A stretch of 64,000 nucleotides of DNA, from positions 169,119 through 233,118 of the forward strand of contig CAWAKC010000010.1 in the NCBI GenBank assembly GCA_963782525.1, in the 5' to 3' direction. The DNA comes from Candidatus Bathyarchaeota archaeon. Its GTDB lineage: Archaea > Thermoproteota > Bathyarchaeia > Bathyarchaeales > Bathycorpusculaceae. Within the stretch, counting starts at the first letter, position 1. Each line of letters starts with the position of its first letter. Shown here one piece after another: positions 6,209 to 27,121 of the stretch. The notes beneath the pieces were generated by a model. It searched no databases. It had not been told where the DNA came from and saw only the letters and a program-made list of their open reading frames with translations. Position numbers and translations under genes: made by a program.

Positions 6209-9200
6209 CTACCTAAGATCAATTTGACGTTTCATAGGTTCCTTTTCATAACAAATCCGAAGCTTCATAATATTGCCTCCACGACCACGTTCTCCTGGGA
6301 AAAAGCGTGTCTCAACTAGACCTCTGCGTTGCAACTCACAAATGACTTTTCCCGACCGACCTTTTCGTCCATATACAGCTGAAGCAGGCACCTTTCCATG
6401 TTTAACTACATCCATCGATGTCCTCCAACCCGACTTTTCCATAGGCAATCTCAACCGCATGTAGTCCTCAACAAAAGAACTGACCAAAAAGTCGAATACT
6501 TTCCTCGAAGCCTCGCTCTTAAATTCAAATCCCACTGCTGAGACTTCTTTAGACTCAGAAAGCGCATTGACAGGAAGAATGGAAATTGCCTTTTCACTTG
6601 GACTCTCTTTCAATTGATCAACTGGAGATATTTTTATAGTGACCACTTTGGGCACGCAAGTTTTACAATTCCCAGTCTCGTCTATATAGACGATCTTCGG
6701 AGAAAAACTGTAGACACCTTCTTTGGTTGCGTATAGCGAAAATTTAATTGTTAACATTTGGAAAGGCGATATAGACTGTTTTCTGAACTCTATGGAACCT
6801 TTTGCCAAAACATAATTAGTAGGCATCTTAGAGACGCTAAAGCTGGGAGAATACAGGTTATCAACTGCGATAAGAAATCCGTTACATCTTGAAACGTTAA
6901 CTATTTCAAGCCATACTTCAAATTCGTCCCCAACCGAACTTTCTTTCTTTAGCATCAAAGATGGCTCTAAATCAAAATATCTAAATTGACTATCAATTTT
7001 CTTAGTAAACATCAGGCTTTTTGCCCTTTGAACCTCGGCATCTGAAGATCGACCTTGTTTATCCAAAGTTGAAGCATAATCTATCCTCATCGTTGCTTCA
7101 AAAGCTCTTGCGAAAAGTGCACCTTTTAAGAGGTCAAGACTCAAATCAAAAAGCGTATTGCTCTTTTCCCAATCCTTCTTCGCAGCAAAGAACAGCGCCT
7201 TGGCTTTAATCATGGCGGCATAGCCAAGTTTGCTCCCGACTTTAGACTCGTCAGGAAATAGGCGCTTAATTTCAACGTAGTGCTTTTCAGCGTTTTCCAA
7301 ATCGCCAAGTTTAGAGTATAAAGCCAAAAGACTAGCCAAACTCTGGCTTTGGATATAATGAGAGTCAGTCTTTTCCGCATATTTATTCGCTAGAAGATTC
7401 TGGGTAACTGCCGCCTCTAATTCACCCAAAATATCCAGGGTTATAGCCGAATAAACAGCAGCCCAACCAGTTCTATAAATGTACCCAATCTTCTCACTGA
7501 TCTCGAATGCCTTGCCAAAACACGCTCACGCTTCACTAAACAGTCTATAATTGAAGAACACTTGACCAGCATAAAAATAAGCATCCACTTGCCCACGAAA
7601 ATCTCCAATTTCCTCGTTCAATGCAATAGCACGCTTAACAACTACAATGGCTTTTTCAGGATAGCCCTCAGTTTGGTAGAGGCTAGCACTTTCATTTAGC
7701 GCTTGGGCTAAATCTGCTAATGAGTTTTCTTCTTCAAAAACAGCTAATGCATTTTCTAAACATTTCAACGTTTCTTTTGAATTTCCAAATGAGCCCATGG
7801 CTGCTGCTTTGTTCAGAAGTAGTCGTGCGTATTCTAATCGACCAAATTCCACGAGGTCGTCTGCTTCTTTGGATAATTCTAGCGAATGGGCAAAATCTCC
7901 AAGCCATCGCGATGATGCCACTGATTTTCGTAGTGCTCGCAGCTTTACTACTCCTTTCTCGGTACTATACAAAAGATGATTGAACATTTTTTGTGCTTCA
8001 CGGAACTCACCTGTGGCAAAAAATGCGTCTCCCAATCCTTCAATTGCTGAAGCACGTTCATCTAAGTACTGTTCCTTTTCCTCTGAAATATCCAAAACAT
8101 ATGAGAAAAATTTCTTCGCTTCCAGGTTACTGAATTTTGCTAAAGCCTCTTTACCTGCCCGCAAAGAATACTCCAATGTTTTGGGGCCATTTCCAGCTTT
8201 TTCGTAGTGGAACGATAAATGACTAGCGATACTTTTTTTCTGGTTCTTACTGAGGGTTTCCAATCTCTCAGCAATTAAAAGATGGTAACCAGACTTCAAC
8301 GGTATTGGCAATTCATCGTAGATTATTTCCTGGGACTTCGCGTGGTCAAACGAGTAAGAGCCATCTTCAAACTTTATCCGCAAAGTTGTTTTAGATATTG
8401 AATTCAGTTTTTCTAAAATCTGAATTTGCTCCTGACCCAGCACAGACGCAATCAACTTAAAATCAAACTTTTCTCCAAGAACAGAAGCAACATCCAGTAT
8501 CTTTCTGTGTTTAAGCTTTAAACTGCTGACTCTTTGCAAAATTATATCTTTAACTTTTAAGGGAATTATAACTTTTAAGGGAATTACTATTCTATCGGTG
8601 GAGGGACGCCATTCACCATTTTCTTGAATGAGACTACCCTCATTACCCAATGTCCTTAAGGATTCAACAACAAAAAGAGCATTACCCTGACTTTCAAATG
8701 ATAATTTTTCCAAAAAAGTAGGTTGTATTTGGCCTCCTAACATACTGGATGCTAACACTCCAACCTCATATGCATTAAGGCTCGGCAACTTGATTTCCCG
8801 ATATAGATCCTCTCGACCCATCGCTCGGAGCGTTTCAACAAGCGATGAAGGTTGCCCTTGTAAATCAAAACTTAAACTCTCACTCCTAAATGTGGCCAGA
8901 ACAAAAATCCTCTCAGAATTGACAAACCGAGAAATATAATGAAGTAATGCCAACGATGCAGAATCAGCCCAATGAATATCTTCAAGAACCAAAACAACAG
9001 GCTTTCTAGTAGACAAATTTAGTAATTCCTTAGTTAACTGATGCAAACGTTAAATCCATCCAAGCTTGAGGGGACCTCACCTCGCCTGTATATTCACTAT
9101 TTTGAAGAGACACTATTCCATCGATTTGACCCTTAACCTTCGGCATAGCAGAAAGTAATTCTTCCGTATTCGGATAAACTGCGCTAAATGCTTCAATTAA

Positions 9201-9440
9201 CGGAAAATAAGGAACGCCGGCATTACTCAAACACCGTCCCAACAAAACGTTAATTTCTTTCTTGCGAGCAATTTCGACAAACTCATTAACCCGTCTAGTC
9301 TTTCCGCTTCCTGCTTCTCCAGAAATAACGATTGTCTGTCCATTAGCCTCCAGAACGGAATCTAAGGTCTTGTTCAAAGTGCTTAGTTCATTATTTCTTC
9401 CGACTAGGACTGGATTAGAAAGACCCAATCGTTTCACCAA
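6209..9440 (-). pseudogene. STAND/AAA_16 ATPase-TPR-Ig-like-wHTH multidomain protein, disrupted
   Basis: Walker A GEAGSGKT (9030..9440); Walker B LVLEDIHWAD and TPRs (7526..9046). Frameshift near 9040, in-frame TGA at 7526-7528 reading through into ORF 6209..7429, and an 18-bp tandem duplication at 8551-8586 (VIIPLK x2). Confidence 0.8.
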
Positions 9441-9640
9441 ATATAATGTATAGTATGAACAATTGATTTTTATTTAACAATTGTCCATCCTATTGTTGTT
9501 CTTTTATTTGACCTTGTCTTAAAAGAAGAAGATTGAAAAAATAGCACTTCTTCTCCTACCAATTAATCGTCTGTTTCTTTACAGAACGCTATTTTGAATT
9601 GGACTTAATGGCTTTTAATCTCTATGTGGTTTGTTAGGTT

Positions 9641-15431: not shown

Positions 15432-18023
15432 TTATTTATTTTTGAATATGAGTTGACCGTTTTTTTCATCCACGATAATCGTTGTGTCTTTGTTGACTTT
15501 TTCAGATAACATCATCTTTGAAAGTTCGTTTAGGATGTCTTTTTGGATAACACGTTTTATTGGTCTGGCGCCGAATTGAGGATCAAATCCAACATTGGCA
15601 ATGTAGTCTATGGCTTTTTTGGTGGCTGAAAGTTTTATGTTGTTTTTTTCAAGCATTTGCTCAACTTGTCGTAGCTGCAACTCCACTATTTTCCGAATTT
15701 CCTCTTGGGTGAGGGGTTGAAACATAATTATTTCGTCGATTCGGTTGAGGAATTCTGGTTTGATGCTTTTCTTGAGTAACTCAAAAACTTGCTCTTTGGT
15801 TTGATTTAGGATGTGCTCTCGGTTTTCAGATGTAATTTTTTCCAGGTTTTCTTGGATGAGGTGGGAGCCTATGTTTGACGTCATAATGATGATGGTGTTT
15901 TTGAAATCGACTGTTCGACCTTTATTATCAGTCAATCGACCATCATCGAGAACCTGCAGTAAAATATTGAAAACATCCGGATGGGCCTTCTCGATTTCAT
16001 CAAGCAAAACAACAGCGTAAGGCTTTCTTCGCACCGCTTCAGTTAACTGTCCGCTTTCTTCATAGCCAACATAACCCGGCGGGGCACCCACAAGCCGAGA
16101 AACGGTATGCCGCTCCTGATACTCCGACATATCAATCCGAACCATATTGTTCTCGTTGTTGAATAGAAACTCTGCTAAAGCCTTGGCTAATTCAGTTTTT
16201 CCAACCCCAGTGGTACCTAAGAAAATAAAAGACCCAATTGGGCGCTTAGGATCTTGCAGGCCAGCGCGACTCCGCCGCAACGCATCAGAAACCGCTTGGA
16301 TTGCTTCATCCTGCCCAACAACCCTCATGTGAAGCTCAGTTTCTATGTTTAGCAGCTTTTGCTTCTCAGTCTGTAGCATACGACTAACAGGAATTCCCGT
16401 CCAGCAAGAAACAACCTCAGCAATTTCCTCCCCACCTACCTCTTCATTTACCAGCGCTGAATCCTTCTGTAACTCTGTTAATTTTTTCTTCAAATCCTCA
16501 ATCGCTTTAGTCGCATTGGGAATTCTGCCATACCGAATCTCGGCAACCCTTCCAAGATCGCCCCGACGGTTAGCATTTTCCTCTTCAAATTTTAACTGTT
16601 CAATCTCATTTTTCTTTGCTTGAATCTGATCAACAATTTCTTTCTCAGCATGCCACTTTGCCCGTAAACTATTGCGTTGCTCAGTTAAATTTGAGATTTC
16701 CTGATTTAGCGACTTGAGCTTAACTTCATTTTTTTCTTGTTTGATGGCTTCACGTTCAATTTCCAACTGCCGAATCTTCCGATCAACATCCTCAAGTTCC
16801 TGAGGCTCAGAATTGATTTCAAGCTCCAACTTAGAAGCCGCTTCATCAATCAAATCAATCGCTTTATCGGGCAGAAAACGCTCAGTAATATACCGAGAAG
16901 ATAACTCAGCAGCTGCAATTATTGCATCATCTCTAATTCGAACGTGATGATACACTTCGTAACGCTCTTTTAAACCTCGAAGGATAGAGATGGTGTCCAA
17001 AACATTAGGTTCATTAACCATAACAGGCTGAAAACGTCTCTCTAAAGCCTTGTCTTTCTCAAAATACTTCTGATATTCCTTCAAAGTCGTTGCACCAATA
17101 GCACGCAACTCGCCTCGCGCCAACGCAGGCTTAAGAATATTAGCCGCATCCATAGCGCCCTCGCCGCCGCCTGCCCCAACAAGCGTATGAATCTCATCGA
17201 TGAAAAGCAAGATATCACCCTCTGCTCCCACGACTTCCTTAATTACACTCTTCAAACGCTCCTCAAATTCTCCCTTGTACTTGGCACCAGCAATCAAAGC
17301 ACCCATATCAAGAGAAAAAACCTGCTTTGACTTCAAATTCTCAGGAACATCACCATTAATTATGCGCTGAGCAAGGCCCTCAACGATAGCTGTTTTACCC
17401 ACACCCGGCTCGCCGATCAATATAGGATTGTTCTTTGTCCGTCTAGACAGAATCTGAAGAACCCGCCGAATTTCACTGTCACGGCCTATAACTGGATCTA
17501 ATTTTCCAGCCTGAGCCATACTGTTTAAGTTGATGGCGTACTTGTTGAGGGCATTGTAAGTTTCTTCTGCAGTCGCCGAATTAACAGAAGACCCCTTACG
17601 CAACTGACTAATCGCAGACTTGAGATCTTTTTCATTAACACCACTACTTTTGAGCAAACGCGAAGCAGAATCATTCAACGACAATATAGCCAACAACAAT
17701 TGCTCTATCGAAACAAACTCATCCTTAGCAGCCGAAGCCAACTCTTGAGCCTTATGAACTGCCTTATTGGAATTTGATGAAAGATACTGTTCTCCCCCGC
17801 TAACTTTAGGTAAAGAATCAATTTCCTTATCAAGCAACCCTGAGAAAGAGTCAGAGTTGACACCAAGTTTTCTAAGCAAGAAAGGAACCACATTCTCATC
17901 AACAAGCAAGATCCCCTTTAGCAAATGAAGCGGCTCAACAGCCTGATTGCGACCTACAGAAGCAATTTCTACAGCCTTCTGAATAGCTTCCTGCGATTTA
18001 ACCGTAAAATTATTCAAACTCAT
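15432..18023 (-). CDS. clpB: ATP-dependent disaggregase ClpB (bacterial type)
   Basis: Clp N-repeats, NBD1 GEPGVGKT/LFIDEIH, coiled-coil M-domain (AEIRYG), NBD2 GTTGVGKT/LLDEIEKAH and FGARP. ATG at 18023 (MSLNNFT) preferred as start. Confidence 0.97.
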   Translation of the reverse strand: MSLNNFTVKSQEAIQKAVEIASVGRNQAVEPLHLLKGILLVDENVVPFLLRKLGVNSDSFSGLLDKEIDSLPKVSGGEQYLSSNSNKAVHKAQELASAAKDEFVSIEQLLLAILSLNDSASRLLKSSGVNEKDLKSAISQLRKGSSVNSATAEETYNALNKYAINLNSMAQAGKLDPVIGRDSEIRRVLQILSRRTKNNPILIGEPGVGKTAIVEGLAQRIINGDVPENLKSKQVFSLDMGALIAGAKYKGEFEERLKSVIKEVVGAEGDILLFIDEIHTLVGAGGGEGAMDAANILKPALARGELRAIGATTLKEYQKYFEKDKALERRFQPVMVNEPNVLDTISILRGLKERYEVYHHVRIRDDAIIAAAELSSRYITERFLPDKAIDLIDEAASKLELEINSEPQELEDVDRKIRQLEIEREAIKQEKNEVKLKSLNQEISNLTEQRNSLRAKWHAEKEIVDQIQAKKNEIEQLKFEEENANRRGDLGRVAEIRYGRIPNATKAIEDLKKKLTELQKDSALVNEEVGGEEIAEVVSCWTGIPVSRMLQTEKQKLLNIETELHMRVVGQDEAIQAVSDALRRSRAGLQDPKRPIGSFIFLGTTGVGKTELAKALAEFLFNNENNMVRIDMSEYQERHTVSRLVGAPPGYVGYEESGQLTEAVRRKPYAVVLLDEIEKAHPDVFNILLQVLDDGRLTDNKGRTVDFKNTIIIMTSNIGSHLIQENLEKITSENREHILNQTKEQVFELLKKSIKPEFLNRIDEIIMFQPLTQEEIRKIVELQLRQVEQMLEKNNIKLSATKKAIDYIANVGFDPQFGARPIKRVIQKDILNELSKMMLSEKVNKDTTIIVDEKNGQLIFKNK

Positions 18024-18320
18024 GCTAACCACCAAAATTATTGGTAAGTCGACTAAACTCTACAAAACCAGAAATGATTTCCCCCAATTAAAGTTTTAGG
18101 CAAAAACCACAAAAAAACTGGATACTAAAAAGCCATCCAGCATCACAATCCTGATGCTTTCTTTTAACTTCAAGATGGTTGATAGTTCGCTTCTTCCACC
18201 AATTAACTAACGTTCGCGTTAAAAAATTAGCCAAGTTAAAAGAAGAAAAAACTGGTCTATATATAAGACGTTTTTTTCCTTAAAAGAATCCTTATATGCC
18301 ATTTTCTGTAGTAGGCTTGC

Positions 18321-18788
18321 ATGGCAGAACCAAAAGATGGTCGACCTATTTTCTTCCCTAAAAAATTAGTTTTGCTCGGCAATCTCGCCCTTTTTGTGTG
18401 GATTGTTCTTGACGCAGTCGCCTTTCTACTATTTGATTTAACGGTTGGCATTGTGTTTCTTTTGGCGACGCTGATCTTAATTTATGGTTTACTGCACATT
18501 CTCGGTTGTCTGCGACCATGCTACAACTGCATAAAATGCACTCACGGCATGGGACGCCTGGCTGCATTGTACTTTGGCAAACGCATCTTCAAAGACTACA
18601 AATACAGCTACAAACTGCCCACAGCAATATTCTTCACTCTATATATTGGGGCGTTTCCAGCAGCATTCGCACTCTACTCAGCAGTCATAGATTTCACAGT
18701 CGTCAAAGTAGCGATTTTTGTGGTTCTTTTGGTGTTTACAATCTATAGCGCCTTAACCTGGCAAACCAAAAAACGCTCGAGCCCATAG
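18321..18788 (+). CDS. 4-TM membrane protein with a CxxxCxxCxxC cluster
   Basis: Hydrophobic helices flank GCLRPCYNCIKC. Confidence 0.65.
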   Translation: MAEPKDGRPIFFPKKLVLLGNLALFVWIVLDAVAFLLFDLTVGIVFLLATLILIYGLLHILGCLRPCYNCIKCTHGMGRLAALYFGKRIFKDYKYSYKLPTAIFFTLYIGAFPAAFALYSAVIDFTVVKVAIFVVLLVFTIYSALTWQTKKRSSP

Positions 18789-18840
18789 AGACAAAATTTT
18801 CACTGAAGCTGCAAATCCATAACTTGAAAACATGACGTTT

Positions 18841-19296
18841 CTATGCTAATTTTGCTCCGCAATTAATGCATTTGGAAGCGTCGGGTTGATTTTTGGTTCC
18901 GCAGTATGAGCAGATTATCATAGCTGGAGTTGTTTCTTTAATTAACGCTTGGGTTTGAGCTTTGTAGATGTTGTCTCTTATTGTTCTGTAGGCTTTTTCT
19001 GCGTCATCTTTAGGTACATCGATTAGTATTAGCTGTGGTGCTGCGGATTTGAAGGTGCATCTGATTGTTGAACGCAGTATTCCCTTGTCTATGATTACAT
19101 TTTCAAAATCTAAGTAGTTGTAGTCAGTGAAGTCTTTTTTTAATCCGAGTGCGTGAGGATGGCGCAAGATTACTCTCTGGTTGGTTATAACGACCGAGTC
19201 AATGTCAATCGCGAGATGGTAAAACTTTTGTTTAATGTAGAGTTCAATGGTCTCGTTAGGATCAAGTATATCTTTCATATCATCAGGAGTCGCCAT
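18841..19296 (-). CDS. bacterial PH-domain protein with C-terminal zinc ribbon
   Basis: LDPNETI, VVITNQRVI, KGILRSTI; CSYCG...CINCG. Confidence 0.8.
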   Translation of the reverse strand: MATPDDMKDILDPNETIELYIKQKFYHLAIDIDSVVITNQRVILRHPHALGLKKDFTDYNYLDFENVIIDKGILRSTIRCTFKSAAPQLILIDVPKDDAEKAYRTIRDNIYKAQTQALIKETTPAMIICSYCGTKNQPDASKCINCGAKLA

Positions 19297-19515
19297 AAAT
19301 CATCAACCAATTTTAAAAAATCTTGACAATTATTTATTTCATGAATAAATACGGGAATATAAACGATTTTATTAACTGGCTTAGATTAAGTTTTCAAAAA
19401 ACAAAATAAAGTACCTTCCTGATTTTCTTGGCAGCTATCAAGGAACCACCAACAGAATTTAGGAAAGACTTTAATAATTTACCAGTTTAAGACATTCAAG
19501 GTCGTTTCTTTTTCG

Positions 19516-20940
19516 ATGCGCAAATTGAATACAAAACAACCCAATGAACCAAATCCACTTGCATCTAAAAACCAGACAACTGAGCAATTAAACCACCAAG
19601 AACTAGCCCAATCAATACTTTCACCGTTTATCCACCTATTCAACATTAATGAAACGACGAAGTGCCTTTTCAACTCTTTAACTCTAAAAAAAGTATACTT
19701 AACCAATGATATGTACGCTAAGCTTTTAACAGATCTAAGTTTGGGAAACCGCAGTAAAGACGTTGAAAGTTTAATCGATCTGAAATTTATAGTGCCTCGA
19801 GGTTTTGATGAGATAAAAGTGTTTGACAGCATTGCAAACAGCGTGCTCAGAAAAAAACCTTCAACCAACCTTGCATACATTTTGGTAACGGACTTTTGCA
19901 ACTTCAGATGCGGTTACTGCTTCATTGAAAACTCTCTAAAAGGGCCAAGCATTTCAATGTCTAAGGATTTGGCAGATAAAGTCATAAACGTTCTGATCAA
20001 CGAAGCAAAACAAGTCCCAGAATACAGAGTCACATTTTATGGAGGAGAACCATTCAGCAACAGCGAAATCGTCTTCCACATCATCGAAAAACTTGAGCAG
20101 GCAGCTAAAGACAAATTCAAATTTTCCTGCGTCACCAACGGAAGTCTAGTAACCGAAGATTTAGCTAAAAAACTCAAACAACACAACGTTACAGTAGGAT
20201 TATCGCTTGACGGATGGGCCAACATCGACAAAAACCGTGTGTTTACCAATGGAAAAGAAACCTTTTACTCAGCACTTAAAGCGTTAACGCTCTTAAAAGA
20301 AGCCGAAGTAAATGTGGGAATATCATGCACAATCACAAAACAGAACTACCAATACGCAGAAGAAGTAGTTGAATTTATCCAAAAATTAGGAATCAGAACC
20401 ATAGGGTTCAATTTGTTAACTAGACTCAAAGAGCCAAGCGAATATGAAGTTCCAGACCCAAAACAACTCGCCCACCACCTCTTTAACGCATACTTAAAAG
20501 CAAACGACTTGCACATGTTTGAAGATCGCATAGGGAATCGGCGAGCAAATTATTTTTTCAAAGAAATATTTCATTTGTACGATTGCCCCGCGTTTGGTCA
20601 ACTAATATTTTTTTCACCAGCTGGAACAGTTGGACCTTGCCACGCGTTCTATCCGTCAGGAAAATATCAAATTCCAATTAAAGATAATTTGAAAGTCCCA
20701 GAAGAACCATTGTTTTACAAATGGTTGGAACTTGGCACCCTAAAGAATAAAGACTGCATGAGGTGTCCTGCCATCGGAATTTGCGGAGGAGGATGCGCAT
20801 ACGATATATACGTTAAAACAGGTCAACTTGGCATCAAAGAAGACTATTTTTGCACCTTTCAAAATGAAATACTCAAGCTCCTTCTATCCTACAATTTCCT
20901 GATGACCCCTCAAAATAAGCGCAGAAAAACGAAAAGTTGA
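19516..20940 (+). CDS. radical SAM/SPASM peptide maturase with probable N-terminal RRE-like domain
   Basis: CNFRCGYC, FYGGEP, TNG, LSLDG; SPASM ligands CPAF...GPC...CMRCPAIGICGGGC...FC; N-terminal LFNSLT...LIDLKFIVP segment. Confidence 0.92.
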   Translation: MRKLNTKQPNEPNPLASKNQTTEQLNHQELAQSILSPFIHLFNINETTKCLFNSLTLKKVYLTNDMYAKLLTDLSLGNRSKDVESLIDLKFIVPRGFDEIKVFDSIANSVLRKKPSTNLAYILVTDFCNFRCGYCFIENSLKGPSISMSKDLADKVINVLINEAKQVPEYRVTFYGGEPFSNSEIVFHIIEKLEQAAKDKFKFSCVTNGSLVTEDLAKKLKQHNVTVGLSLDGWANIDKNRVFTNGKETFYSALKALTLLKEAEVNVGISCTITKQNYQYAEEVVEFIQKLGIRTIGFNLLTRLKEPSEYEVPDPKQLAHHLFNAYLKANDLHMFEDRIGNRRANYFFKEIFHLYDCPAFGQLIFFSPAGTVGPCHAFYPSGKYQIPIKDNLKVPEEPLFYKWLELGTLKNKDCMRCPAIGICGGGCAYDIYVKTGQLGIKEDYFCTFQNEILKLLLSYNFLMTPQNKRRKTKS

Positions 20941-21129
20941 AAACTTTCATCTCCAAACAGCAAGAAACCCGCGACCAAGCTAAATCAAAAAAGCCCGGCA
21001 AACAATTGCCAATCTACCAATGTAATAAATGAAAAAGACATGCACACTTTTGACCTTAACTTTGCGCCAGATTAATTTTTACAATAAATATAAATATTGT
21101 TACTCACTACAACAATGTAGTGATTGTTT

Positions 21130-21567
21130 TTGTCAAAAAATAAATCAAAAGCTAAAGCTCCCTCCAAAAAACCCACTTCTACAATGCTTAATAAAAATCA
21201 AACCCGCGCGGCGCCAAAAAAAATGACCCCAGCCCAAACTAAACGGTTAAAAACAATTTTAGCAAAAATGCCACCTATCGAGAAAATAGATCCTGCAATG
21301 TATGCGAAGCTACAGTCAACGATTCATGATGTAGTAGTTAAAGCGTTGCCTGAATACCAGCAATGGGTGGGCGCAAACCTGGTAGCTGATGACTGTCCGA
21401 CACCCTTGTGTAGCTCATGCGGCAACGATTGCCCAACTCCGTTATGTAGTTCATGTGGAAATGACTGTCCGACGCCAATTAAAGACATTGATGATCTTGT
21501 CAATTCGGCTGTCGAAAAGGCAATGACCGCGGCAATTCGTCAAGCTTTGGAAAAACAATTCAAATAA
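21130..21567 (+). CDS. putative RiPP precursor or modified small protein with internal Cys-rich tandem core
   Basis: K-rich N-terminus, helical leader, core DCPTPLCSSCGN x2 + DCPTP (7 Cys), helical follower. Sits between two radical SAM genes. TTG at 21130 chosen by alignment with 23563 (ORF track start 21124). Confidence 0.8.
   Translation: MSKNKSKAKAPSKKPTSTMLNKNQTRAAPKKMTPAQTKRLKTILAKMPPIEKIDPAMYAKLQSTIHDVVVKALPEYQQWVGANLVADDCPTPLCSSCGNDCPTPLCSSCGNDCPTPIKDIDDLVNSAVEKAMTAAIRQALEKQFK
21391..21477 (+). repeat. 36-bp coding tandem repeat (2.4 units)
   Basis: Units 21391-21426, 21427-21462 and partial 21463-21477. Identical peptide; 10 of 12 codons differ synonymously between units 1 and 2. 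Confidence 0.95.
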
Positions 21568-21626
21568 AGATTATTTTCCAACCAGAAACACAAACGCTCA
21601 ATGAACAACAGTTAGCAAAATATTTC

Positions 21627-21709
21627 GCCTATTGCGCTATAACGCAATAGGTATTCTAAAAACCCCCTTCAGGCAAGACCAGGCAGGCTGGTCCTCTGCC
21701 TGAGTTTTT
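21627..21709 (+). terminator. two stem-loops downstream of the precursor gene, the second followed by a T-run
   Basis: cctattgcg-ctataa-cgcaatagg (21628-21651) and tcaggca.gaccag-gcagg-ctggtc...tgcctga (21669-21703) followed by gttttt. Confidence 0.6.
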
Positions 21710-21869
21710 AATCGTAAAAAACGCTTAATATTATTACAGAAAATTTGATAAATACACTAACTTCGGTTGCCTATCGTTCGATCAATGTTTTGTAATAATA
21801 GAACAAGATTAAATCTATGTGTAGCATATTTGGAAGTTCTCCCACAAACAATCTTAGAAAGGTTACAAA

Positions 21870-23459
21870 ATGCGTGTAATTCTTTGTATCCCTCCAGTTT
21901 CTTCGTTAGTTCCTTATCCTGCAATTCCATACTTAACAAGTAGTCTGAAGGCAAATAATCAAAAGGTTAGTACTTTTGATCTGAACATTAAGGCTTTTAA
22001 TTCAACTCTTTTTCGCATAGGCGTGGATATTAAGCCCGGAAAAATTTTACGTAACATTAATCCTGGCGTAAGCGCGAAATGGACCAAAGTTCCTGAGGCA
22101 AATATTTACTCGACCATGCGAGAGAGCAAAGAAATTTTCGAAGAAATTATGTCAGAAGAGGCGGCTGATCAATTAGGTTGTCCCCATTCAAACTTAAAGT
22201 CCAGATATACCATAACCACAGAAGTAAAACAGCAAATAATTTCGGATGTTTGGAAAACTTGTAACAATTGGTTATCGGAGCTTGCCAGTGATACCAAAGA
22301 ACAAAGTATTATAGGCTTCCATGTAATTAGTCAAACTGGATTGTTGTGGAGCATACTTCTTTCGCGAAAATTAAAGAAAATTCTTCCCAGGATTTTAACA
22401 GTCTTGGGAGGTCCGGCATTCCTCGCATGGGGCAAAGTTCTCTCTACCCATCCCGAAATTGACATAATAGTTCGAGGGGAAGGCGAGACAACAATCTCTG
22501 AAATAGCAAATTTCTATGACGGAAGCTTAGAATCAATAAAAGGAATCAACGGAATTTCATACCGAAACAGAGAAAATAAAATTATTACCGTTGCGGACCG
22601 CCCATTAATAAAATCTCTTAATGCTTTGCCTTTTCCCAATTATGATGATTTGCCATTAAAAGAATACCCTCAGAACAAGTTCGAGATGCCTATAATTCCA
22701 GTTGTCGGCTCTAGAGGATGCATTGGAAACTGCGTTTTTTGTGTTGAAAAACGCTTATGGGGGAACACCTATCGGATGCGTACACCTGAAAATATCTTAT
22801 CCGAATTCAAAAATATTAAAGAAAAATGTGGGCCTTCTTTTATTCGCTTCAACGACAGTTTAATTAATTGTAATATAAAGTCGCTAGAAACATTCTGCAA
22901 TTTATTGATTAAAGAGAATATCAGAATGCAGTGGATGGGTAATGCTCGAATCCGACCTGAGATGACCGATAAATTGCTTAAAAAAATGCACCAAGCAGGT
23001 TGTGTAGGATTATGGTATGGCATAGAATCTGGGTCTCAAAGAATATTGAATAAAATGAAAAAAGGGTATAATTTGGAAACGGCGAAACAAGTGATCCAAG
23101 ATACTGCAAGAAACTCCATTCGCGTTCTAATATTCATGATAGTGGATTTTCCGGGAGAAACACCACACGATTTTAAACAATCAGTTGACTTCTTACAGCA
23201 GAATCAAGTTAACATTGATCAAGTCAGCATTTCACGTTTCGGGATCTTGCATGATTCAGAAATATCTCTCAACCCACAAAAATATGGACTTAAAGTTACT
23301 GAGAAAAAAGTGGGCGTAAATTACAATTATACATATTCACCTAGACCCATAAGCAATCGATATGAAATCTTAGATTCTGCCTGGAAGCATTTGAGCATGC
23401 TAAAAACGGCGAACCACGTTAGAAGAAATCCTGTAAAAATAATCGTTCCTTATTTCTGA
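21870..23459 (+). CDS. cobalamin-dependent (class B) radical SAM enzyme
   Basis: B12-binding domain (PYLTSSLK, DLNI, VLGGP, RGEGE), SRGCIGNCVFC, GIESGSQRILNKMKK and FPGET. Confidence 0.92.
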   Translation: MRVILCIPPVSSLVPYPAIPYLTSSLKANNQKVSTFDLNIKAFNSTLFRIGVDIKPGKILRNINPGVSAKWTKVPEANIYSTMRESKEIFEEIMSEEAADQLGCPHSNLKSRYTITTEVKQQIISDVWKTCNNWLSELASDTKEQSIIGFHVISQTGLLWSILLSRKLKKILPRILTVLGGPAFLAWGKVLSTHPEIDIIVRGEGETTISEIANFYDGSLESIKGINGISYRNRENKIITVADRPLIKSLNALPFPNYDDLPLKEYPQNKFEMPIIPVVGSRGCIGNCVFCVEKRLWGNTYRMRTPENILSEFKNIKEKCGPSFIRFNDSLINCNIKSLETFCNLLIKENIRMQWMGNARIRPEMTDKLLKKMHQAGCVGLWYGIESGSQRILNKMKKGYNLETAKQVIQDTARNSIRVLIFMIVDFPGETPHDFKQSVDFLQQNQVNIDQVSISRFGILHDSEISLNPQKYGLKVTEKKVGVNYNYTYSPRPISNRYEILDSAWKHLSMLKTANHVRRNPVKIIVPYF

Positions 23460-23562
23460 ACAAGTTTATCGCCAGAGATGCCTTCTGGCTATGTCTTTAG
23501 TTTAGTTCACTAAACCCATAAATATTGTTTTGAGAGATCTTAAAGTAGAGCAGCGATTATTT

Positions 23563-24738
23563 TTGCCAAAAAACAAATCAGCAACTAAACCCCTCTCTAA
23601 AAAACCTGCAAAAACTGGTTCTAAGACAAAAACAAATGCAGCTGTTTCAAAGAAAAGACAAACCAAGAAGCAAAATGAAACCCCACAAACACCTTTAGAC
23701 AAAAATCAACCCTTTGCAAAATTGAACCCAGAAATATATGCGAAGCTTCAATCAACAATAGATGAACTCGTTATAGAAACCGTACCCAAGTACAATGAAT
23801 GGTTAAATTCTGCATTTAGCGAAAAAATTATAGTAGAGGATTCTTCCAAGGACGACCCTGCCTCCATCAAAGTAGGCGGGTCTGGTGCGAAAATTGATCA
23901 GATGGTAGTTACTGCTTTCACTAAAGTTATTAATGAGGCAATTAAGAAAGCTTTGGAAAAAAATGATCATTCGGGAATTATGGAAAAATGGTTCAAAAAG
24001 AAATTTTGTGATGACCTTTCTGACATTCGTCCTGAAAGCAGGAATTATTACAAGTATTGTGTAAATAATTTCGTTACAAATTTTTTTTCTAAAGACCGAA
24101 TATCGGGAAAGAAGATTCTCGACTTTGGATGTGGCCCAGGATACTATTCCGCGATTTTGGCCCAACGTGGATCATACGTAATTGGAATTGACAGAAGTGC
24201 GTTTCTAATTCACAAAGCAAACGAACTCAAACAAAAACTAGGACTTAAAAATGTAGATTTCATTCAAGGAGATTTTCTTGATTTTGCGGCAAATGTGATG
24301 CCTAAGGAGTTTGACTACATCATTGCAGTAGACACGATTGTGAGTTTTGACTATTCAAGACAAAAACATAACCATGAGGAATTTTCCCAAGCATTGAGCA
24401 GAATCAACAGAATTCTGAAAGATCGTGGCAGATTCTTTATTATTGAAGCGCATCCTTTTTTTGGTCAACTTGCTAAAGGAATAAAATTCTCAAGCGAAGG
24501 ACATTTTCACGGTCGTTTACCCAATTATAAAATAGAATATAAAGGTAAAAATAATCCTCACCATTGGTTTACTCTTAACGAAATAACCAGTGCTCTTAGT
24601 GAGAACTGCTTAGCAATTTGTAGGATTTATGAGCCCGATCCAAGCGTTGAATTAAAAAAAGAAAACGCCCAATTATTCAAATTTTTCCTAAAGTATCCCC
24701 ACATGATTGTATACGAAATATGCAAAGTAAGATCCTGA
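23563..24738 (+). CDS. class I SAM methyltransferase fused to a core-less copy of the precursor scaffold
   Basis: ILDFGCGPG, VIGIDRS, FIQGD, FDYII, ILKDRGRF and EAHPF motifs; the first ~133 aa align with the precursor 21130..21567. ORF track start 23530. Confidence 0.9.
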   Translation: MPKNKSATKPLSKKPAKTGSKTKTNAAVSKKRQTKKQNETPQTPLDKNQPFAKLNPEIYAKLQSTIDELVIETVPKYNEWLNSAFSEKIIVEDSSKDDPASIKVGGSGAKIDQMVVTAFTKVINEAIKKALEKNDHSGIMEKWFKKKFCDDLSDIRPESRNYYKYCVNNFVTNFFSKDRISGKKILDFGCGPGYYSAILAQRGSYVIGIDRSAFLIHKANELKQKLGLKNVDFIQGDFLDFAANVMPKEFDYIIAVDTIVSFDYSRQKHNHEEFSQALSRINRILKDRGRFFIIEAHPFFGQLAKGIKFSSEGHFHGRLPNYKIEYKGKNNPHHWFTLNEITSALSENCLAICRIYEPDPSVELKKENAQLFKFFLKYPHMIVYEICKVRS

Positions 24739-24928
24739 TTAATATGCCATCTAGTATTCATCATGAGTTTGCTCTTTTTTATTGCTTAAACTAACCTATC
24801 TTTTATCCACAAATCAATAAGTTACGGGTTAATTTCCGTTTGATTGACTAATATAAACTTTCAACAGCAACATATCCATAAATATAGTACCCAAAGATAT
24901 CCTAACTTAATATGTTTCTGCTGGAGTT

Positions 24929-26092
24929 TTGAAGAGGTGGACTGGGAGCAACATTTTTTTCCAGCTGCTCGTTTTATATATGCGATTGAGTATGTCGGTT
25001 TTCCTTTTTGACCAAGAAACGATAGGTATGATTCGCTACATTCTGGCACTTCGACGTTTTAAGGAGTATTCAGTTGGACCTCAAGGCTTAGATGAGTATC
25101 TTTGTGCCGTATCTTTCAATAGGGTGCTAATCCAGACGGGGCTAAAATTTTCCAAGTTTCAGAAAGATAATCCGGGAGATATCCGAGTGTATGAGGTTAT
25201 CCGTTTCTTAGAGCAGAAAAGCCACATAAATCCTCCAACGGCGCAGAAACTGAGAGAATACGTGGATTTTTATGACTCCCTGATGAATACCAATTGTCAA
25301 ACAGCTCCAATAAAGGCTAATTCTAAAGCTCAGGAAATCTTGCGGTTTCTCTGTATTGAAGCGGGCTTGGACCAAGATGAGGAACTCAAAAATAGGACAT
25401 TCGAGGACATAGCAACTCTTGCAACAAGGCAATCTGCTGCAAACCAGAATTACGAGAAGCTTGTTGAATCTGATTTTGACAATTTTGATAAACTCTACGA
25501 GAAGTGTCCGTCTTTGAAGCTGGAAATAGAAAAAAGATTAACGACCTCATTGCGGGGTGCACAAATATCGGGTTTCACTCCTAATACTGGTGGGATATGG
25601 CTGCCTTTTGTTACGCTTGAAACAAATGATAGTAGAGCACATATTGATAGGGCAAGTGTTGGAGTAATCTTTACGCCTCTTGATGTTAGGATAGGATTGA
25701 ATTTTGGTAGTCAGGCTCACAAGTTTAGGATGAGATATTATGGAATGCTTTTGAATGGGGAATTGATGAATGAGTTGGAGTTTCTTAACCGCAGAGATAC
25801 GGGATACTGTTTCTGTGACACTTTTTGGAATTATCATATAAGGAATTTGCAGTCTCTTCAATGGTGTCTTACTCTTTATGGCAGTACTAAGATTAGTATT
25901 GAAAACGCTATTGAAGAGACTAGACAGCTTGAGGGAACTTTTTTGACGGCAAACAAGTACTTAATTAGTAAAGTGATTAGGAGAAGTCGGGAAGATTTTG
26001 CTTATGTTTTAAACGGACTTGTTGATGAGATTTCTAAGACTTTAAATGAACTTTATCCAACAATAGAGCGTATTAACAAAGCTCAAGCCTGA
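24929..26092 (+). CDS. hypothetical protein
   Basis: 387-aa ORF (true start probably the internal ATG near 25028); no confident family. Confidence 0.6.
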   Translation: MKRWTGSNIFFQLLVLYMRLSMSVFLFDQETIGMIRYILALRRFKEYSVGPQGLDEYLCAVSFNRVLIQTGLKFSKFQKDNPGDIRVYEVIRFLEQKSHINPPTAQKLREYVDFYDSLMNTNCQTAPIKANSKAQEILRFLCIEAGLDQDEELKNRTFEDIATLATRQSAANQNYEKLVESDFDNFDKLYEKCPSLKLEIEKRLTTSLRGAQISGFTPNTGGIWLPFVTLETNDSRAHIDRASVGVIFTPLDVRIGLNFGSQAHKFRMRYYGMLLNGELMNELEFLNRRDTGYCFCDTFWNYHIRNLQSLQWCLTLYGSTKISIENAIEETRQLEGTFLTANKYLISKVIRRSREDFAYVLNGLVDEISKTLNELYPTIERINKAQA

Positions 26093-26128
26093 ACTCTTGG
26101 ACGTGGATCATAAGTTATTCTGAGTTAA

Positions 26129-26656
26129 TCACGGGATGTTTTGAAGAACCCAAATCAGAGTGTCTCTTTCAATTCTTCTCTTCTCGTTTGAGCGGTCGTT
26201 TGGAGTTTCCGCAATTAGAGTATTTAGTTGATTGAGCTTTTCATCGATTTTGCTTCTCAATTCTCCAAGGTTGACCTTTTCGTAAACCTCTCTTTCTGAC
26301 TTTTCGGGGTGATCAAAGTTGTTGTTTTCTGTTTTCTTTTCTATTTTTTCCGCAGATTTTTCTCGATTTCTGTTTGGTGTTTCGGGTATTAAGCTACCAA
26401 GTTTACTTGTTAAGTTGTTTAATGTGGCAGTTGTTATTCCTCTATCAGTTAAATTGTATTTTTTCGTGAACTTTTTGATTGTGCCTGAAATTCTGTCTGC
26501 TTCTTCTTTGTCATCTACTTTTATCAGGATTTTATTATGTGGGTAACCGAGTTGGTAGCCCGCGTTGTATCCTCTTTCCTCAAGAATTTTTACTATAAGT
26601 TGGGCAAGGTTTTCATCGTTCGGTTTAAAAACTTCATAGTCCTTCGGCATATTCAT
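26129..26656 (-). CDS. hypothetical protein
   Basis: 175-aa charged ORF. Confidence 0.55.
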   Translation of the reverse strand: MNMPKDYEVFKPNDENLAQLIVKILEERGYNAGYQLGYPHNKILIKVDDKEEADRISGTIKKFTKKYNLTDRGITTATLNNLTSKLGSLIPETPNRNREKSAEKIEKKTENNNFDHPEKSEREVYEKVNLGELRSKIDEKLNQLNTLIAETPNDRSNEKRRIERDTLIWVLQNIP

Positions 26657-26788
26657 TCACAACTTGCTTGTTTATTTCTAAGCTTTACGGATTTAAGATT
26701 TGTTAAAAACCCAAATTTGTTTTCTGAATTTATAAGAGCTAAACTTAAAATGTGAAGTATCTTAGCAGAGAACTTTTATCCATTTGTT

Positions 26789-27121
26789 TTATTTTGACCT
26801 ATAATCGCTAGAGATTGAGCTGTAGGGATTCTCTTTCTCTCTTCTCTCAGCAGTTTCTTTCATTTCTTCAACAACTTGACCTATACTTGCCATGGGCAAC
26901 ACGTCTCTAGAAACGATTGACCGGGATAATAGTTCAATTTTTTCATTAAGTGCGCTGACCTTAATCTCAAAAATCGTCAGGTCTTTATCTGTCACATAAA
27001 GTTCTACGATACAGTCTTTTGGGTGTTCTTCGGGAATTCCTCGGACAATGATTGCGTAATAATCATGTTTTCCCCTTGAAAAGAGGCTTCCAACTGAGTC
27101 AACGATTGTCCAGTTTAACAT
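26789..27121 (-). CDS. hypothetical protein
   Basis: 110-aa ORF with ATG start. Confidence 0.55.
   Translation of the reverse strand: MLNWTIVDSVGSLFSRGKHDYYAIIVRGIPEEHPKDCIVELYVTDKDLTIFEIKVSALNEKIELLSRSIVSRDVLPMASIGQVVEEMKETAERREKENPYSSISSDYRSK

Follow-up and report, generated by a model that had tools for sequence, protein, structure and literature searches.

QhpD is a radical S-adenosylmethionine (SAM) enzyme of the SPASM type that forms thioethers between Cys and Asp/Glu in a small protein which remains a protein subunit, and PapA carries Cys-X3-Asp/Glu as its motif. In proteusin tailoring, PoyB and PoyC are B12-dependent radical SAM C-methyltransferases and PoyE is an N-methyltransferase. 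In methyl-coenzyme M reductase, an archaeal B12-dependent radical SAM glutamine C-methyltransferase and a class I Cys S-methyltransferase modify side chains of a folded protein. Here, we describe a four-gene cassette found in a 64,000-nucleotide stretch of a Candidatus Bathyarchaeota archaeon genome (hereafter the window; assembly GCA_963782525.1, contig CAWAKC010000010.1) and compare it with these systems and with CrpABC of a methanogen. In the accessible text of Dieter et al. (2026, PMC13692751), CrpC, an archaeal SPASM radical SAM enzyme of Methanococcus voltae, installs ranthionines on the Cys-repeat protein CrpA at C-x-x-D-like motifs, e.g., CAVD and PCAGD. CrpB shares the N-terminus of CrpA and raises the extent of modification, recognition in CrpABC involves domain-domain contacts, and QhpD is cited as a parallel (PMC13692751, accessible text). 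As far as that text goes, it is only recently that archaeal enzymes have been shown to form thioether cross-links in whole proteins rather than short peptides, and this in one methanogen system. The supplement to PMC13692751, as described there, lists radical SAM-associated Cys-rich proteins, among which the family described below may or may not be included. Archaeal ranthipeptide clusters are mentioned only generically in the accessible part of PMC12144867, and nothing joining Bathyarchaeia to radical SAM enzymes and ribosomally synthesized, post-translationally modified peptides (RiPPs) was found in the literature searched.

The four co-oriented genes that an earlier note on this DNA had reported are all present and intact on the plus strand. 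They encode a radical SAM/SPASM enzyme of 474 residues (19516–20940), a small Cys-repeat protein (21124–21567), a radical SAM enzyme of 529 residues with a B12-binding domain (21870–23459), and a methyltransferase of 402 residues (23530–24738). The genome behind the window is 2.87 Mb in 12 contigs and is estimated to be 95.8% complete, and the window is C10:169119–233118 of this genome. Our best reading of the sequence, to which we give a probability of about 0.58, is that the cassette carries out a RiPP-like modification of a protein without release of a cleaved peptide, in which the radical SAM/SPASM enzyme would form thioethers in the small protein and methylation would follow.

Comparison with described systems

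Judged from sequence features, the cassette would work like CrpABC and is not a member of the CrpC, PapB, SCIFF, FibroRumin, or QhpD families. As far as CrpABC is described in the accessible text, both systems are archaeal and have a three-cluster SPASM radical SAM enzyme with an N-terminal recognition domain, a putative one in the window enzyme. In both, the gene for this enzyme stands beside that for an unannotated protein of more than 100 residues with a short repeated Cys motif holding C-x-x-D/Q, and a second protein of the cluster shares the N-terminal region of the substrate. No obvious protease occurs in either, so that the product would be a modified protein. The earlier note knew the core, its central position, and the enzyme trio from no described RiPP class; for the concept, CrpABC now provides a precedent, a SPASM radical SAM enzyme that puts ranthionines on an archaeal Cys-repeat protein. 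The two systems also differ in several respects. The window enzyme falls outside the CrpC family (TIGR04463, 94.3 bits against a cut-off of 525; residues 47–293 aligned). The core lies between helices in the window protein and at the C-terminus in CrpA, and it consists of one to five 12-residue units in the former family and ten 17-residue units in the latter (CrpA as given in the accessible text). The Cys content of the window protein is 4.8% (7/147), under the 10% used in the screen described in that text. A B12-dependent radical SAM enzyme and a methyltransferase are added in the cassette, and the protein sharing the N-terminus of the substrate is here an enzyme.

The other systems resemble the cassette in part. 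PapB, CteB, and the SCIFF maturases are among the nearest profile or Protein Data Bank (PDB) relatives of the radical SAM/SPASM enzyme and act on Cys-rich substrates. However, the enzyme scores below the cut-offs of PapB (NF047865, 150.5 bits against 340, 6.5e-44) and the SCIFF maturase (TIGR03974, 102.1 against 425), whose substrates are short leader-core peptides, and the cassette motif, C-x-x-[D/Q/E], is unlike that of PapA. In contrast to the QhpD/QhpC system, no dehydrogenase subunit, heme protein, or QhpE-type protease is found among the other four conserved genes. The proteusin pathways share with the cassette a B12-dependent radical SAM enzyme and a class I methyltransferase acting on a ribosomal product with a long, protein-like recognition region. 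They differ from it in that TIGR03975 matches only below its cut-off, no Nif11 or NHLP leader is matched, no epimerase is present, and the cassette methyltransferase carries a copy of the substrate scaffold. The glutamine C-methyltransferase model of the methyl-coenzyme M reductase system (TIGR04014) matches the B12-dependent enzyme at 2.1e-27, but with 96 bits against a cut-off of 360.

The cassette would represent a second substrate family, in a different archaeal phylum and unrelated to CrpA, the two families being set apart by description (CrpA from the accessible text) and not by sequence comparison. A core between two conserved helices, the presumed addition of B12- and SAM-dependent methylation, and a tailoring enzyme with a copy of the substrate scaffold are features that the accessible text on CrpABC does not report. 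The four-gene set spans less than 5.3 kb and is directly testable, and it would offer an inroad to how tailoring enzymes find protein-sized substrates. To our knowledge, the Bathyarchaeota of soil and peat that carry it are known from metagenomes only, with no cultured member of the lineage, and any function learned would be new biology for them.

Conserved gene order and distribution of the cassette

Gene neighbourhoods were compared in 28 genome loci taken from a species-representative genome collection, 24 of which bear enzyme genes. The order radical SAM/SPASM, small protein, B12-dependent radical SAM, and methyltransferase recurred in 20 of the 28, with a second small gene before the methyltransferase gene in seven of these 20, so that the four-gene synteny on which the earlier note had proposed a check is a recurrent one. 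Two loci had the radical SAM/SPASM, small, and methyltransferase genes, two had the radical SAM/SPASM and small genes alone (one with a radical SAM fragment only), and overall the small gene adjoined a radical SAM/SPASM orthologue in 24 loci. Twenty-one of 27 short metagenome contigs were collected with the small gene as seed, and the radical SAM/SPASM gene adjoined it in 15 of them; two of the six misses were contigs cut about 200 nt upstream. The B12-dependent enzyme gene followed the small gene in nine of the 21 and the methyltransferase gene followed it directly in two, in one of which the radical SAM/SPASM gene came after the methyltransferase gene. With the radical SAM/SPASM enzyme as seed, a small gene lay no more than 1 kb away from 11 of the 12 genes of at least 70% identity. 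Both genes occurred together in seven of 61 genomes, and the other 54 had neither. These counts are strong evidence that the small gene and the radical SAM/SPASM gene form a tightly coupled pair, and the arrangement as a whole is not random. The earlier note had inferred that the small protein is the shared substrate of the enzymes. Its coupling to the radical SAM/SPASM enzyme supports this in part; the B12-dependent enzyme and the methyltransferase are accessory, because some loci lack one or both of them.

A subtype was also recognized, in which a radical SAM/SPASM enzyme of about 70% identity is paired, in either gene order, with a long-form small protein of 165–203 residues that has a C-terminal extension; no B12-dependent enzyme or methyltransferase genes were present within the sequence available for this subtype. 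Across loci, the cassette enzymes share 63–89% identity and keep all catalytic Cys residues. No further gene family occurred in more than six of the 28 loci (up to 16 kb each). An open reading frame (ORF) cluster present in 18 loci was rejected as an extra shared gene, being an antisense shadow ORF inside the gene for the B12-dependent enzyme.

Of the 120 species genomes in the genus to which the window belongs, 22 carried the small-protein family (10 of the 73 high-quality ones), and it was not found in 24 genomes from 20 other genera of the order. Among sequencing runs, no RNA entry was listed for the sequence, and five DNA entries had shares of 0.05–0.24. Radical SAM/SPASM orthologues were present in three of 40 sampled genomes of the genus, and 360 genomes from 130 other genera of the class yielded a single match, at 33% identity. 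The cassette is restricted to one Bathyarchaeota genus. Twenty-seven of the 28 genome loci are from Candidatus Bathyarchaeota archaeon records, and the remaining one (L056) is a contig of 10426 bases labelled Sulfotelmatobacter, which is probably misbinned. This contig carries a radical SAM/SPASM gene of 75% identity and a long-form small gene, with a second, distant radical SAM gene (24% identity) directly upstream.

Small Cys-repeat protein

The small gene encodes 147 residues from its first TTG and 145 from its likely start at 21130, in agreement with the length of about 145 given in the earlier note. As that note had also described, all seven Cys residues lie in an internal repeat between helical segments, DCPTPLCSSCGN-DCPTPLCSSCGN-DCPTP (residues 90–118, nt 21391–21477). 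Counted from the first Cys, the core (C91–P118, 21394–21477) consists of two 12-residue units CPTPLCSSCGND and a terminal CPTP. The two full units are identical in protein sequence and different at 10 of 12 codons, all of the differences being synonymous, which fits long-standing purifying selection on the peptide.

A word-indexed search yielded 128 homologues of 80–258 residues, none with a Pfam domain. In an exhaustive profile search of 1.84 billion representatives, only 18 clusters were obtained at E≤0.001, of which one is a methyltransferase of 367 residues (P0131) and the weakest (P0135) looks like a chance match to the repeat. The small protein matched no model in Pfam and none in NCBIfam at E≤0.01, including leader models of the Nif11 and NHLP types, in line with the earlier note, which knew the core from no described RiPP class. 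The ESM Atlas gave no usable match for the protein, and the repeat motif strings did not occur in the literature searched.

Among the 120 homologues listed, one unit was present in four proteins, two in 75, three in 38, four in two, and five in one. The consensus of their 281 units is the 12-residue sequence [C]-P-[T/V]-[E/P/Q]-[L/V/I]-C-S-[S/A]-C-x-N-[D/Q/E], whose positions are numbered from 0 (C0, P1, C5, C8, N10, and D/Q/E11). P1, C5, and C8 were present in all 281 units, N10 in 268, and D, Q, or E at position 11 in 276, and C0 was present in 256, its losses being mostly in first units. Rarer members (P0122, P0126, and P0133) carry other Cys patterns on the same scaffold. An AlphaFold2 model places helices at residues 36–48, 57–86, and 121–145, and the repeat and residues 1–30 are at pLDDT (predicted local distance difference test) values below 50. 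In an alignment of 108 sequences, the mean majority fraction was 0.84, 0.84, and 0.75 for the three helices, 0.59 for the core, and 0.52 for the tail.

The genome behind the window carries another small gene of the long form, at C3:83134–83625 on the minus strand (positions 9036–9626 of locus L022). Its product of 196 residues has three CPVEICSSCGND units followed by CPTP and a Lys-rich C-terminal extension. The neighbouring genes are unrelated (helicase-like, PIN-like, and Fe-S assembly-like), with no radical SAM gene nearby, and the only radical SAM/SPASM enzyme that could serve this protein, in trans, would be the single one of the window.

Radical SAM/SPASM enzyme

The 474-residue enzyme matched Radical_SAM (PF04055) with 78.6 bits (cut-off 29.5) and also Fer4_12. 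Its CxxxCxxC motif is C128/C132/C135, and seven further Cys residues are C357, C375, C414, C417, C423, C427, and C446. None of the ten varied in any of the 13 homologues compared, whose identities went as low as 28%, which upheld the assignment of a CxxxCxxC and a full SPASM Cys set in the earlier note. The SPASM pattern consists of C375 in GTVGPC (Gx4C), C414-x2-C417-x5-C423-x3-C427 (Cx2Cx5Cx3C), and C446. SPASM membership is thus assigned by motif and not by model, because the Pfam SPASM model PF13186 gave no match. From their pattern, the ten invariant residues are the set for three clusters.

The NCBIfam matches were, in order, the FibroRumin maturase, PapB, CefB, QhpD, the nif11-peptide maturase, AmcB, the anaerobic sulfatase maturase, and the SCIFF maturase. 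The enzyme is not a member of the FibroRumin maturase (TIGR04136, 179.3 bits, cut-off 400) or QhpD (TIGR03906, 113.8 bits, cut-off 453, residues 37–448 aligned) families, nor of the PapB, SCIFF maturase, and TIGR04463 families, as the scores given above indicate. By this ranking, the nearest families are thioether-forming RiPP or protein maturases (FibroRumin, PapB, CefB, QhpD, and SCIFF). The best solved relatives in the PDB were CteB (5wgg, 4.8e-24) and then 8vpo. The N-terminal domain of about 85 residues aligns to the N-terminal parts of peptide-maturase families; from residues 36–47 onward, the alignment extends over those of the FibroRumin, QhpD, CefB, and TIGR04463 models. One TIGR04463 member carries a predicted RiPP recognition element (RRE), according to the accessible text of PMC13692751.

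Six "catalytic site proximity" positions have been defined on CteB, and in the accessible part of that report (PMC10288494) they are F-F-T-S-H-Q in the ranthisynthase CteB and Y-T-I-S-K-L in the sactisynthase StsB. The corresponding residues of the window enzyme are F136-Y175-V206-S230-H376-A377, three of the six being identical to CteB and one to StsB, as mapped by hand from the CteB alignment and compared with these two reference profiles and no similarity matrix. The proximity residues lean towards ranthionine chemistry but are no proof of it. Below about 70% identity, the next relatives of the enzyme are at 44–47%, several of them fused to GNAT acetyltransferase domains. Four relatives at 38–47% identity (P0191, P0196, P0197, and P0201), with lengths of 571–595 residues, have such domains, an arrangement of fused tailoring functions unlike that in the cassette.

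Accessory enzymes

The second radical SAM enzyme is a presumed C-methyltransferase. It matched Radical_SAM (PF04055) with 60.3 bits (cut-off 29.5), with the cluster motif in SRGCIGNCVFC, and the B12-binding model PF02310 with 28.9 bits, slightly under the cut-off of 32.1. Of the description as a cobalamin-dependent radical SAM enzyme in the earlier note, the radical SAM core is therefore above its cut-off and the B12-binding part just below. Among the NCBIfam models, ApyD gave 144.2 bits (cut-off 750), HpnJ 141.1 (cut-off 577.6), and rSAM_ocin_1 (TIGR03975), a RiPP C-methyltransferase subfamily, 139.8 (cut-off 281.85; 1.1e-40). The best PDB match was 9ccb (2.2e-19), and CysS (2.7e-10), AprD4, and TokK (6.7e-06) were also matched. 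CysS and TokK are methylases, and AprD4 and the best match 9ccb have no demonstrated methylase role.

The methyltransferase, of 391 residues from its likely start at 23563, consists of two parts. Its C-terminal domain (23977–24738) matched Methyltransf_31 (PF13847) with 80.4 bits against a cut-off of 27 (1.3e-22) and has the GxGxG-type motif DFGCGPG, as expected for the class I methyltransferase named in the earlier note. DFGCGPG was invariant in 14 of 16 methyltransferases and D[FL]GCGPG was found in all 16, and the PDB relatives of the domain were generic class I methyltransferases only (best 1ve3, 4.3e-12). The N-terminal domain (23530–23976) is a repeat-less paralogue of the small protein. 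The first 145 or so residues of the methyltransferase align end to end with the small protein (BLASTP E=4e-19, 34% identity over 152 columns), which substantiates the fusion to a scaffold seen in the earlier note. The two proteins have in common the basic tail, the two helix regions, and the helix at the C-terminus, and a short Cys-poor linker with the consensus GNDxSNGSLQN stands in the methyltransferase where the small protein has its repeat. This domain was kept in 16 of the 16 methyltransferases aligned. A shared-word search yielded no relatives of the small protein that were longer and fused, the fused methyltransferase being seen by profile only.

A complex of the small protein (residues 31–147) with the methyltransferase N-terminal domain (residues 58–150) was predicted with an ipSAE of 0.34, against 0.00 for the best of three controls. 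At least 63% of the contacts were common to the runs, and the partner pLDDT was at least 53. In the calibration of ipSAE, 58 of 80 solved complexes and two of 110 mismatched pairs came up to the mark, and at values of 0.60 or less only seven of the 80 solved complexes did so, along with both passing mismatches; these counts hold only roughly here, custom alignments having been used. The prediction gives weak support to a pairing of the small protein with this domain.

Proposed modification and alternative explanations

According to our best reading, the substrate would be the protein of about 145 residues, which consists of a basic tail that is disordered, two N-terminal helices and one C-terminal helix, all conserved, and between them a loop of one to five units. 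The radical SAM/SPASM enzyme would bind the conserved N-terminal part of this protein through its own N-terminal domain and turn Cys residues of the loop into intramolecular thioethers, most likely of the ranthionine type. Each bond would join the Cys sulfur to a side-chain carbon of the residue at +3 in C-x-x-[D/Q/E], that is, C8 to D/Q/E11 and perhaps C0 to E/Q3 in the many homologues with C-P-x-E/Q. In loci that have them, the B12-dependent enzyme would carry out C-methylation and the class I methyltransferase N-, O-, or S-methylation, with the nearly invariant Asn and the position of D/Q/E as candidate targets. The methyltransferase would find its substrate via its own repeat-less copy of the scaffold, by pairing with the substrate helices or by taking the docking site on the radical SAM/SPASM enzyme. 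The product, neither excised nor exported, would be an intracellular rigid polycyclic loop on a helical stalk, and metal binding or a redox role can be offered as guesses. A more specific proposal, which we hold to be possible but doubtful, is that the methyltransferase recognizes its substrate by paralogue mimicry, holding the Cys loop at its active site as the N-terminal domain pairs with the substrate helices or replaces the substrate on the radical SAM/SPASM enzyme, and that the product is an intracellular protein whose polycyclic, thioether-stapled, methylated loop serves as a built-in cofactor or metal site. If true, such mimicry would differ in principle from recognition by RRE-leader binding.

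Several observations weigh against the modification of the small protein as proposed. All of the chemistry is what we infer, and the reaction type of the radical SAM/SPASM enzyme is extrapolated, because its score lies below the curated cut-off of every named family. Its N-terminus, described as RRE-like in the earlier note, gave no match to PqqD (PF05402) at E≤10 for residues 1–120, and in the ESM Atlas it matched unnamed clusters, with PqqD a weak lead at rank 28 (score 0.89); indirect support for the likeness comes from the full-length alignment to RRE-bearing maturase families. Position 3 of the window's own units is Pro (CPTP), neither acidic nor amide, which leaves no more than one generally present C-x-x-[D/Q/E] motif in each unit. 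The predicted structures are of low confidence, with an overall pLDDT of 57.6 for the small protein and 50.8 for the methyltransferase. Orphan small genes occupy four of the 28 genome loci, including that for the 196-residue protein. A radical SAM/SPASM gene without the small protein, named in the earlier note as evidence against its proposal, was found once: the paralogue G029:C10, the exception among the 12 genes mentioned above, has no small gene or related gene within 18 kb, with an orphan small gene about 34 kb away on the same contig. Finally, at least one cassette gene was split, often in A-rich stretches, in 13 of the 24 enzyme-bearing genome loci (L032–L059), which could be decay or assembly error.

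The earlier note had proposed a RiPP system. RiPP-like modification is retained in our reading, but strict leader-core cleavage is not, no protease or transporter being common to the 28 loci. In a classical RiPP pathway, the flanks would be a leader and a follower removed by unlinked proteases, and one cross-linked, methylated peptide per repeat or the whole core would be released to act outside the cell. We regard this as rather unlikely. In its favour, a maturase-like radical SAM/SPASM enzyme, a B12-dependent enzyme near ApyD and rSAM_ocin_1, and a methyltransferase are a trio typical of RiPP clusters, a unit number of one to five is like that of multi-core precursors, and a second precursor gene is present in seven loci. 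The apparent promoter of the small gene and the hairpin that follows it in three loci (see below) also fit, as does a patchy occurrence in 22 of 120 genomes, like that of accessory biosynthetic clusters. Nevertheless, no protease, transporter, or immunity gene was conserved in the 28 loci, and no signal peptide or double-glycine-type site was seen in the small protein by eye. The flanks are better conserved than the core, with the C-terminal helix as conserved as the N-terminal ones, and in the methyltransferase both flanks persist as what looks like a folded domain, which argues that they are a structural unit and not disposable signals. A modified protein is the better reading because no protease or transporter is conserved and the helices are better conserved than the core.

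The small protein might instead be a metal- or Fe-S-binding partner of both radical SAM enzymes (an electron donor, cluster carrier, or metal chaperone), with the enzymes acting on another molecule. Radical SAM enzymes require a reductant, one-unit members have exactly four Cys residues, and C-S-S-C-G-N-D-C-P has the Cx2Cx3CP spacing of what we take to be the second half of the ferredoxin motif, which counts against thioether formation as well as for this alternative. A metal-related role of CrpA is suspected by the authors of PMC13692751 in the accessible text. However, the first Cys is replaced in 25 of the 281 units, so that a four-Cys site is not conserved, and adjacent units would need to share a Cys. 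One to five repeats would be odd for a cofactor site, and no fold is predicted for the loop by AlphaFold2. The nearest radical SAM families all act on peptides or proteins encoded beside them, and no alternative substrate gene is conserved across the loci. A role as binding partner is, in our judgement, improbable. It is also very unlikely, in our view, that most carriers have a decaying or non-functional cassette whose order reflects only shared ancestry within one genus. The split genes would be explained in this way, and for a family confined to one genus, gene order conserved between close relatives is by itself little evidence, but all four window genes are intact, and the splits may be assembly indel errors. 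Enzymes at 63–89% identity with all catalytic Cys residues, a cassette that stays whole while its flanking genes differ, repeat divergence that is synonymous only, and paralogous subtypes that keep the pairing of a radical SAM/SPASM enzyme of 70% identity with a long-form small protein in either order likewise stand against decay.

Translation starts, promoter-like blocks, and hairpin

The conserved start was the TTG of TTGTTTTTG[T/C]CAAAAAA in all of the 17 small-gene and 14 methyltransferase-gene starts compared, and ATG was never found. A longer form of this context, TTGTTTTTG[T/C]CAAAAAA[T/C]AAA, is common to the small gene and the methyltransferase gene, along with a conserved block before it (21083–21150 and 23500–23590 in the window). 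The conserved TTG places the likely starts at 21130 for the small gene and at 23563 for the methyltransferase gene. That synonymous positions are conserved as well suggests that initiation is constrained in the DNA or RNA itself. An A/T-rich, TATA-like block with the upstream context of the small gene (21083–21123, plus strand) was conserved across the loci compared; upstream of the small-gene TTG, the window and 16 other loci have the block (c)aataaa[ct]at[ta]aata...caatgtagtga, and a paralogous TATA-like block stands before the methyltransferase gene. These elements suggest a separate promoter for the small gene.

In the 300-nt spacer after the small gene, a hairpin with a five-U run at the 3′ end of its stem (21657–21710, plus strand) had a folding energy of -24.1 kcal/mol (z=-3.96), and none of 200 shuffled sequences was as stable. 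Lying between the gene for the presumed substrate and those for the enzymes that follow, it may act as a terminator or an attenuator. Similar hairpins with compensating changes were found in two of 16 other intergenic regions, those of the nearest loci (L032 and L037), and the hairpin was dropped as a general part of the system, being kept in only these two.

Neighbouring genes

No Rfam families were found in 18000–27000. A Pfam scan of sub-regions (the N- and C-termini of the radical SAM/SPASM enzyme, the termini of the B12-dependent enzyme, and the methyltransferase N-terminal domain) gave nothing above cut-off, and Sey1_3HB, at 18.2 bits against a cut-off of 24, was taken as a chance match. 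Downstream of the cassette, the ORF at 24929–26092 (plus strand, 387 residues) and its neighbours were rejected as cassette members, Pfam and NCBIfam giving no match to them and the other loci lacking a counterpart. The protein of 175 residues encoded at 26129–26656 on the minus strand likewise matched nothing in Pfam or NCBIfam, and the cassettes of other genomes have no counterpart of it beside them. Immediately upstream of the cassette, 18841–19296 on the minus strand encodes a bPH_3 (bacterial-PH-domain) protein with a C-terminal zinc ribbon, which was syntenic in one other locus only (L042, 89% identity). The genes flanking the cassette vary between loci while the cassette itself holds together, and a family of transposase-like ORFs (330 residues in one example) was found near it in four of the 28 loci (L033, L035, L046, and L050). 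The transposase-like ORFs and the varied flanks hint that, within the genus, the cassette is mobile or subject to reshuffling.

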